A stretch of DNA of 64,000 bases. Origin: Escherichia coli. Its GTDB lineage: Bacteria > Pseudomonadota > Gammaproteobacteria > Enterobacterales > Enterobacteriaceae. Where the stretch lies: assembly GCF_001677475.2 (NCBI RefSeq), contig NZ_CP015229.1. One strand, written 5' to 3'. Position 1 is the first letter of the stretch; the number at the start of each line of letters is the position of its first letter. Of this stretch, positions 19,336-19,949 are shown in pieces. A program made the position numbers and the translations under genes. The notes under the pieces are model-generated. The model did not search any database. It was given only the letters and a program-made list of their open reading frames with translations, and had not been told where the DNA came from.

Positions 19336-19949
19336 AATCATTTCCTTATTAGCTTGCTGTCTGCGTCACACTACGACCAAACGTTATCAGATTATTTAAT
19401 ACATTGTTTTTAATACAATTCTGAAACAATCTGAACACCTGATTGGGTTTGAGTCCATTGCTGGCTACCCACTCAAGGTTGCTCGTAGCTGACTTACTTA
19501 AATTACCCAAACAATAGACAGTGTAAACCATTTGTGAGGTTGAGCGTGTTATATGGCTGAAATGATCATTTAAGGTAAATATGATAGTTCTGAAATGGCG
19601 GGATAAATCCTCCTGTAGAGGTTAAGAGCATCTGCAAGAAGCCAGTTTCACATTTATAACGCGTGATAAATGAACGCGGTTATTGTCTAATCATTACAGA
19701 ATTTTTCACATGCAATAAGAGATCCTGCGATTAAGATGATTGCTAAAATTACATTGTATTTTTGAAAATGAGCGAAATTTGATAGTCCCAGCTTTGACTT
19801 TTGATAATATTATATATGCTACAGTTGTGGGTAAAGAATTTAAGCTAATGAGTTTGAGCGAAGAATAAATCAAACTGTATCAGTGTTTCGTTAATTAATA
19901 TGAGTATAAATGCGTTGTGCTTTTATAATAATAAAGCACGAGGAGTTCA

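Follow-up and report, generated by a model that had tools for sequence, protein, structure and literature searches.

The window analysed here, 64,000 nucleotides of the Escherichia coli contig NZ_CP015229.1 (assembly GCF_001677475.2), carries in this order the gene ybjP (18820–19335, minus strand), an islet with an open reading frame (ORF) of low guanine plus cytosine (GC) content, ybjQ (from 21963, plus strand) and amiD, and the spacer between ybjP and ybjQ is 2627 bp long, versus 125 bp in K-12. RefSeq annotation of the identical locus describes the product of ybjP as a DUF3828 lipoprotein, and the islet ORF (19983–21752, plus strand) encodes a 589-amino-acid pentapeptide-repeat protein with a Pfam match to PF00805 above threshold and one to PF13599 just below it. 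Our subject is the non-coding stretch between these two genes, 19336–19982 (647 bp; 34% GC, versus 51% in the whole window), which is probably a two-way (divergent) control region within acquired DNA, its left part serving ybjP and its right part the islet gene.

An earlier note on this DNA had described a long, AT-rich untranslated gap at 19342–19949. The gap itself is borne out (GC 0.345 versus 0.510 for the whole window), as are the two sequences quoted from it, ttgataatattatatatgctacag at 19801–19824 and ttaattaatatgagtataaatg at 19891–19912, but its limits have to be shifted: because the annotated ybjP start lies at 19335, the gap begins at 19336, and because the islet ORF likely starts at ATG 19983 and not at GTG 19950, as discussed below, the right edge moves by 33 nt. 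Segments of 608 nt with a GC content this low make up 3% of the window, and nearly all of them lie inside the same islet (19251–22108). The islet ORF has 32% GC; the AT-richness is thus shared with the ORF and is not specific to the leader. No record among the complete E. coli genomes carrying the stretch annotates any feature under it, a scan found no transfer RNA genes, and a tandem-repeat scan returned merely four very short, low-scoring arrays.

Start sites and conservation on the ybjP side

Transcription start sites have been mapped by Cappable-seq in the O157:H7 strain EDL933, for which Table S5 lists three minus-strand starts of ybjP (RS04960), at 1033012, 1033014 and 1033043 (PMC10469882); statements on EDL933 starts, here and below, refer to the sites listed there. 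Mapped through the ybjP start (EDL933 1032835), they fall at positions 19512, 19514 and 19543 of the window, and the two sequences agree at every position from −50 to +11 of each site. The start at 19512 was recorded in exponential cultures in lysogeny broth (LB), M9 and salt and in stationary salt cultures, that at 19514 in stationary LB and acid, and that at 19543 in exponential salt and in stationary M9 and salt (PMC10469882). The resulting 5' untranslated regions (5'UTRs) of ybjP measure 177, 179 and 208 nt, compared with 56 nt in K-12 according to RegulonDB (PMC10469882). In the window, the main start cluster (19512, 19514) corresponds to a 5'UTR at 19336–19514, to which the distal start, seen in salt and in stationary M9, adds 19515–19543. 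Hexamers resembling a −10 element can be read by eye on the minus strand, TACACT at 19520–19525 and TATAAC ahead of 19543. No terminator-like site was found on either strand between 19200 and 20100, and no start nearer to ybjP is listed for EDL933, which supports the view that transcripts from these starts would read through into ybjP.

Conservation was expressed as mean pairwise diversity over 29 distinct leader alleles, compiled from E. coli genomes and 43 metagenome contigs. The most conserved block of the stretch, 19473–19592, is near-invariant (diversity ≤0.007) and holds the ybjP starts together with their upstream promoter DNA on the minus strand; the block 19613–19672 is conserved as well, and the left part at large (19354–19670) shows a divergence of 0.013–0.022 between common alleles. 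The right part (19671–19982) is the most variable sequence at the locus, with several indels and a divergence of 0.07–0.09 in most comparisons and of 0.28 against the allele L008. Within it, only 19773–19812 and 19973–19992 are conserved. For scale, synonymous divergence amounts to 0.10–0.18 in the islet ORF and 0.03–0.08 in ybjP, the divergence of the right part being about half of that in the ORF.

The K-12 start at −56 and its TATTAT −10 element fall in, or at the edge of, 46 nt that are without counterpart in the islet form and that are conserved in E. albertii, E. fergusonii and Salmonella. With this native, K-12-type promoter lost, ybjP in islet strains must use imported promoters. We therefore favour a mechanism in which the replacement removed the native promoter (start −56) and left ybjP dependent on the imported one; in the left part of the stretch (19336 to about 19670), polymerase would start at 19512/19514 on the minus strand, and additionally at 19543 under salt or stationary conditions, and would proceed through a 5'UTR of 177–208 nt into ybjP.

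The right part and the islet gene

A sigma-70-like promoter candidate, TTGATA and GATAAT separated by 18 nt, is located at 19779–19808 on the plus strand; it agrees with the consensus at 10 of 12 positions and has a predicted start at about 19814–19816. It coincides with the conserved block 19773–19812 (diversity 0.01–0.02), and both of its hexamers are intact in L008, a 73%-identical allele. The number of promoter-like sites in the region is not above that in shuffled sequence (3 versus 3.5 expected). The same scan predicts both mapped start sites of ybjQ, which lends it some credibility at this locus. The site at 19779–19808 would be the promoter of the islet gene. The earlier note had expected the islet promoter in this stretch, and its right side offers such a candidate, whereas the left third, with its minus-strand starts, serves ybjP. 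Between the two promoters lies a near-perfect 22-bp palindrome (CATTTATAACG|CGTGATAAATG, 19651–19672), a candidate operator; it is disrupted in the divergent allele L008, and short inverted repeats are common in the AT-rich DNA of this stretch.

The predicted 5'UTR of the islet gene (19809–19982, plus strand; about 170 nt) is hypervariable, with a diversity of up to 0.17, a 9-bp indel after 19838 and a hairpin at 19917–19939. A single read from crosslinking, ligation and sequencing of hybrids (CLASH) with RNase E, at Sakai 1033643–1033686 on the plus strand (about 19904–19947 of the window, or −46 to −3 of the islet ORF), shows that plus-strand RNA is present just upstream of the ORF in this strain (PMC5286369). 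The same chimera pairs the 5'UTR of the islet gene (ECs0949) with the iron-responsive RNA RyhB (PMC5286369, supplement file 5). At the site complementary to RyhB CCUCGCG, the O157 allele reads GCGCGAGG and the window allele instead GCACGAGG, and the calculated duplex of RyhB with the ECs0949 5'UTR is not distinguishable from that obtained with shuffled sequence; the pairing is best regarded as anecdotal.

Translation of the islet ORF likely starts at ATG 19983 on the plus strand, which a Shine-Dalgarno sequence, GGTGAT (19970–19975), precedes with a 7-nt spacer (19970–19985 altogether). In L008, whose ORF differs by about 18% of nucleotides, a 1-nt deletion between GTG 19950 and the ATG leaves the frame intact (589 amino acids) only from the ATG. 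Moreover, 19973–19992 is conserved versus a variable 19933–19972, and the eleven extra codons gained from the GTG vary freely. The deletion and the conservation pattern favour ATG 19983 over GTG 19950, and the NCBI Prokaryotic Genome Annotation Pipeline (PGAP) places the start at this ATG in three strains. Annotation of the start is inconsistent at present, with GTG 19950 in O157 records and many database proteins (599–600 amino acids) and ATG 19983 in current PGAP records (589 amino acids). The right part of the stretch (about 19671–19982) would accordingly be composed of the sigma-70-type candidate, a 5'UTR of about 170 nt with little conservation, the GGTGAT motif and the ATG of the pentapeptide-repeat gene.

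Between alleles, the ratio of nonsynonymous to synonymous divergence (dN/dS) of the islet ORF is 0.17–0.29, which indicates purifying selection; searches of the PDB and PADLOC returned no match for the protein. The gene is truncated in O157:H7 (L002, 4618–6424), where a stop follows after 402 codons from the ATG and a second ORF fragment remains, and also in one metagenome contig (L007); other lineages have an intact copy that is under purifying selection. As far as the listed EDL933 starts go, it looks silent or weakly expressed in laboratory culture. An identity with EspX2 (ECs0876) was considered and rejected, since ECs_0876 sits between rhlE and dinG and the two proteins share no significant similarity (best E = 0.59).

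The right tail of the foreign segment (21753–21900, plus strand) carries an outward promoter for ybjQ and ends where homology to the K-12 spacer resumes, at 21901. This near-consensus promoter (TTGACA and TAAACT separated by 16 nt, 21853–21880) has a predicted start that equals the ybjQ start listed for EDL933 at −78 (window 21885), and a second site (TTCCCA and GATAAT separated by 17 nt, 21894–21922) matches the listed start at −34. With the ybjP starts at one end and the ybjQ promoter at the other, both ends of the segment appear to drive the flanking core genes. In the strain CUWW06 (L003, 4328–5095), IS1B stands in place of most of the islet (about 19669–21737), taking out the ORF and the right-hand portion of the leader. 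What remains are 327 bp at the start of the leader and ~230 bp at the end of the islet, the promoter ends for ybjP and ybjQ.

Distribution and origin of the acquired segment

The stretch is present in 1128 of 5426 complete E. coli genomes (about 21%), as a single chromosomal copy that always lies between ybjP and ybjQ. A contiguous short junction of the K-12 type was found in 4295 genomes, and since the two counts add up to all 5423 genomes that matched the junction query, the counts fit a locus with two states and do not point to another. E. albertii, E. fergusonii and Salmonella enterica, which were reached via YbjQ homologues and context look-ups with exact proteins, have a short spacer (125–127 bp), whose sequence, including the region of the K-12 ybjP promoter, is conserved out to Salmonella. 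The short form also occurs in the B2 strain Nissle 1917. The outgroups and Nissle indicate that the short form is ancestral and the islet derived, and it follows from the short outgroup spacer that the foreign segment (about 19288–21900) replaced the native ybjP promoter.

Homology between K-12 and the window covers the first 21 nt beside the ybjP start codon and begins again at 21901, the 46 nt between having been replaced; a possible match of the K-12 spacer to 19354–19377 or 21866–21885 was not above shuffled controls. Within ybjP, the islet alleles compared (window, O157, L008 and L009; four of four) share 16 differences from Nissle at nucleotides 9–48, and differences are sparse thereafter. 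The first ~16 codons (19288–19335) are of islet type, with MRYRSLSLLIP versus MRYSKLTMLIP, and the foreign segment therefore starts within the signal-peptide codons, near 19288. The segment, roughly 2.6 kb long (about 19288–21900), would have carried along a ybjP 5' end, a ribosome-binding site and upstream DNA of its own. No transposase, terminal inverted repeats or target duplication were found at the islet, which, along with the diverged 5' coding end of ybjP, argues for homologous recombination in the flanks and against transposition; the donor would already have had the arrangement ybjP–leader–ORF–ybjQ. A sensitive blastn search of all complete E. coli genomes recovered neither a further copy of the leader nor a paralogue, which rules out a repeat of the enterobacterial repetitive intergenic consensus (ERIC), repetitive extragenic palindrome (REP) or miniature inverted-repeat transposable element (MITE) type. 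A peptide-pattern scan of 100,044 species genomes returned one match only, an E. coli-like contig mislabelled Collinsella.

The L008 class (strain WL297, 3501–5918) comprises 19 genomes at 80–90% leader identity. It reaches a synonymous divergence (dS) of 0.53 in the islet ORF and a divergence of 0.28 across the leader's right part, versus a dS of 0.09–0.26 in the flanking genes; an islet more diverged than its flanks suggests very old islet alleles or repeated import. ybjP is itself mosaic within E. coli (window 18820–19335; L004, 4953–5468; L057; L059): over codons 1–100, K-12 shows a dS of 1.1–1.3 versus Nissle and the window and only 0.17 versus E. fergusonii, and codons 101–171 are near-identical among E. 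coli strains. The pattern suggests an independent recombination between species that has nothing to do with the islet. Elsewhere in the window, the sole other place where 608-nt segments have a GC content below 0.40 is 33251–33858, between a minus-strand ORF (end 33332) and a plus-strand ORF (start 33752). In the artP–ybjP spacer, 18754–18790 gave a weak match to an Rfam model of direct repeats of clustered regularly interspaced short palindromic repeats (CRISPR; 25.9 bits versus a gathering threshold of 45, E = 0.1), most likely a chance match on a GC-rich hairpin.

Alternative readings and comparison with known systems

The reading of the stretch as a divergent control region builds on data for composition, distribution among genomes, the conservation profile, the EDL933 starts, the short outgroup spacer and the support for ATG 19983. 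Several observations weigh against it. The EDL933 starts were assigned to genes by proximity (≤250 bp upstream) and not by a continuous transcript, and they come from O157:H7, a different strain from that of the window (PMC10469882). Start-site mapping, which the earlier note had named as a check, yielded listed starts on the ybjP side, all on the minus strand, and none for the islet gene (RS04970) among the sites listed for eight conditions (PMC10469882). The ybjP starts have poor −35 matches and were missed by the consensus promoter scan, which would fit a dependence on sigma-S or on an activator. In comparisons with L008, the allele that diverges most, the left part reaches 0.098, close to the synonymous divergence of ybjP (0.088), so that its conservation may partly reflect linkage to ybjP and not selection. 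Finally, a scan of the stretch for the high-affinity motif of H-NS, TCGATAAATT, gave no match when up to two mismatches were allowed.

The earlier note had taken the entire 600 bp as leader and promoter of the islet gene, rich in H-NS sites and without a role for ybjP. The acquired DNA is AT-rich (31–38% GC), and from its base composition the region may be an H-NS target; the promoter candidate at 19779–19808 would fit such a leader, and a gene for which no start is listed in eight laboratory conditions is compatible with silencing. We nevertheless consider this view unlikely, as the only starts listed in the stretch lie on the minus strand and point toward ybjP, which needs this DNA now that its native promoter is gone, and as the best-conserved block surrounds those very starts and the H-NS motif is missing. 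There is a better, if still doubtful, case for regarding everything beyond the two core promoters as non-functional filler, for instance decayed debris from the donor. The divergence and indels of the right part (0.07–0.09 between common alleles, 0.28 against L008) speak for it, as does the failure to find any motif, repeat or RNA family; however, the right part has diverged only roughly half as far as the synonymous sites of the ORF, and 19613–19672 and 19773–19812 are conserved. Such filler would also largely agree with a divergent control region and is not a true alternative to it.

A hidden small RNA or small ORF, for which the earlier note had left room, did not emerge. That the minus-strand starts at 19512–19543 produce an independent small RNA of up to ~180–200 nt and not ybjP mRNA is very unlikely. 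The listed starts are reproducible and condition-dependent, their assignment to ybjP is by proximity alone, and a 193-nt minus-strand RNA (19512 to 19320, the 5'UTR together with the opening codons of ybjP) is predicted to fold with somewhat greater stability than shuffled sequence (z = −2.5; 3 of 200 shuffles). Yet the terminator-like site that such an RNA would call for is missing, no other ybjP start is listed, and Rfam gave no relevant match, its two weak sub-threshold ones (E 0.1–0.17) lying outside 19336–19982. Covariation is seen at none of the 50 predicted pairs, and variant alleles break several of them; for the hairpin at the centre of the fold predicted for the ybjP 5'UTR, an imperfect inverted repeat at 19387–19434, covariation is uninformative because the repeat is invariant in 8 distinct UTR alleles. 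The supplement of the Hfq crosslinking and immunoprecipitation (CLIP) study of Tree 2014 holds nothing at the Sakai coordinates of the stretch, the RNase E-CLASH supplement, looked up by locus names, nothing for its ybjP side (PMC5286369), and a full-text literature look-up by locus tags gave nothing useful. Somewhat less remote, but still improbable, is that the imported 177–208-nt 5'UTR acts as a regulatory RNA element (a target or sponge of small RNAs, or a leader responsive to temperature or osmolarity) or is processed to a stable small RNA; if it did, post-transcriptional control of ybjP would differ in the islet carriers, which make up a fifth of E. coli genomes, O157:H7 and Shigella sonnei among them. 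The 60-amino-acid ORF at 19349–19531 (minus strand) exists, as the earlier note had observed, and the bases ahead of its ATG (CTCAACCTCACAA) indeed contain no Shine-Dalgarno sequence. It is open in seven of seven alleles examined, was once annotated in EDL933 (RS04965, since dropped by RefSeq), and the listed distal start 19543 lies 12 nt upstream of its ATG, which would suit a gene for a small protein or an upstream ORF that regulates ybjP. Against either role, which we hold to be extremely improbable, the main starts 19512 and 19514 lie inside the ORF, downstream of its sole ATG and with no internal one, non-synonymous changes predominate among the substitutions, and the stop codon is lost in L008. 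Its four matches are all 'hypothetical proteins' of E. coli and Shigella from the same locus, it belongs to no Pfam family, and it is absent from the entries listed in the intergenic small-gene ribosome-profiling lists of Hücker 2017 for Sakai. We judge it a non-gene, and no other small ORF is preserved across alleles.

Taken as a divergent control region, the stretch is a real but ordinary feature, which neither adds a new class of element nor settles a long-standing question. Annotation benefits at a locus that about 21% of complete E. coli genomes carry: ybjP has its 5'UTR and promoter inside islet DNA, the islet gene probably runs from ATG 19983 (589 amino acids), and the 60-amino-acid ORF is best left unannotated.

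In Enterobacteriaceae, AT-rich horizontally acquired islets are targets of xenogeneic silencing by H-NS. The stretch resembles the promoter regions of such islets in its 34% GC within a 51% GC genome and in its absence from the outgroups and from 79% of E. coli, and the islet gene resembles silenced ones in being without a start among those listed for laboratory culture. Unlike silenced islets, it shows no match to the nucleation motif TCGATAAATT, and a third of it is used by an actively transcribed core gene. The O-island (OI) small RNAs of enterohaemorrhagic E. coli (Esr41, Esr055, Arl, sRNA350 and the EcOnc set) share its O157-specific, AT-rich intergenic location, but the stretch has no terminator, relevant Rfam match or entry in Tree 2014, and it is not among the four that a review names, namely Arl and sRNA350 (OI-148), Esr41 (OI-43) and Esr055 (OI-93). 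The islet protein is similar to type III effectors of the EspX/PipB2 type in its pentapeptide repeats, its low-GC gene and its Ser/Asn/Ile-rich N-terminus (MINNISDQASS), and one database source labels it 'putative type III effector'; this likeness is one of sequence features, and to EspX2 itself there is, as noted above, no significant sequence similarity.

A further parallel is the replacement or capture of promoters by inserted DNA, as with outward-reading promoters of insertion sequences or with regulatory rewiring through acquired DNA. The locus departs from capture by an insertion sequence in that transposase, terminal inverted repeat and target duplication are all lacking, the 5' end of ybjP pointing to recombination instead. 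The outcome is nonetheless alike: the foreign segment removes the ybjP start at −56 and supplies those at −177 to −208, and at its other end it contributes a TTGACA/TAAACT promoter in agreement with the listed ybjQ start at −78, which makes the locus a small, clean case in which the core genes on either side have had their promoters replaced by acquired DNA.
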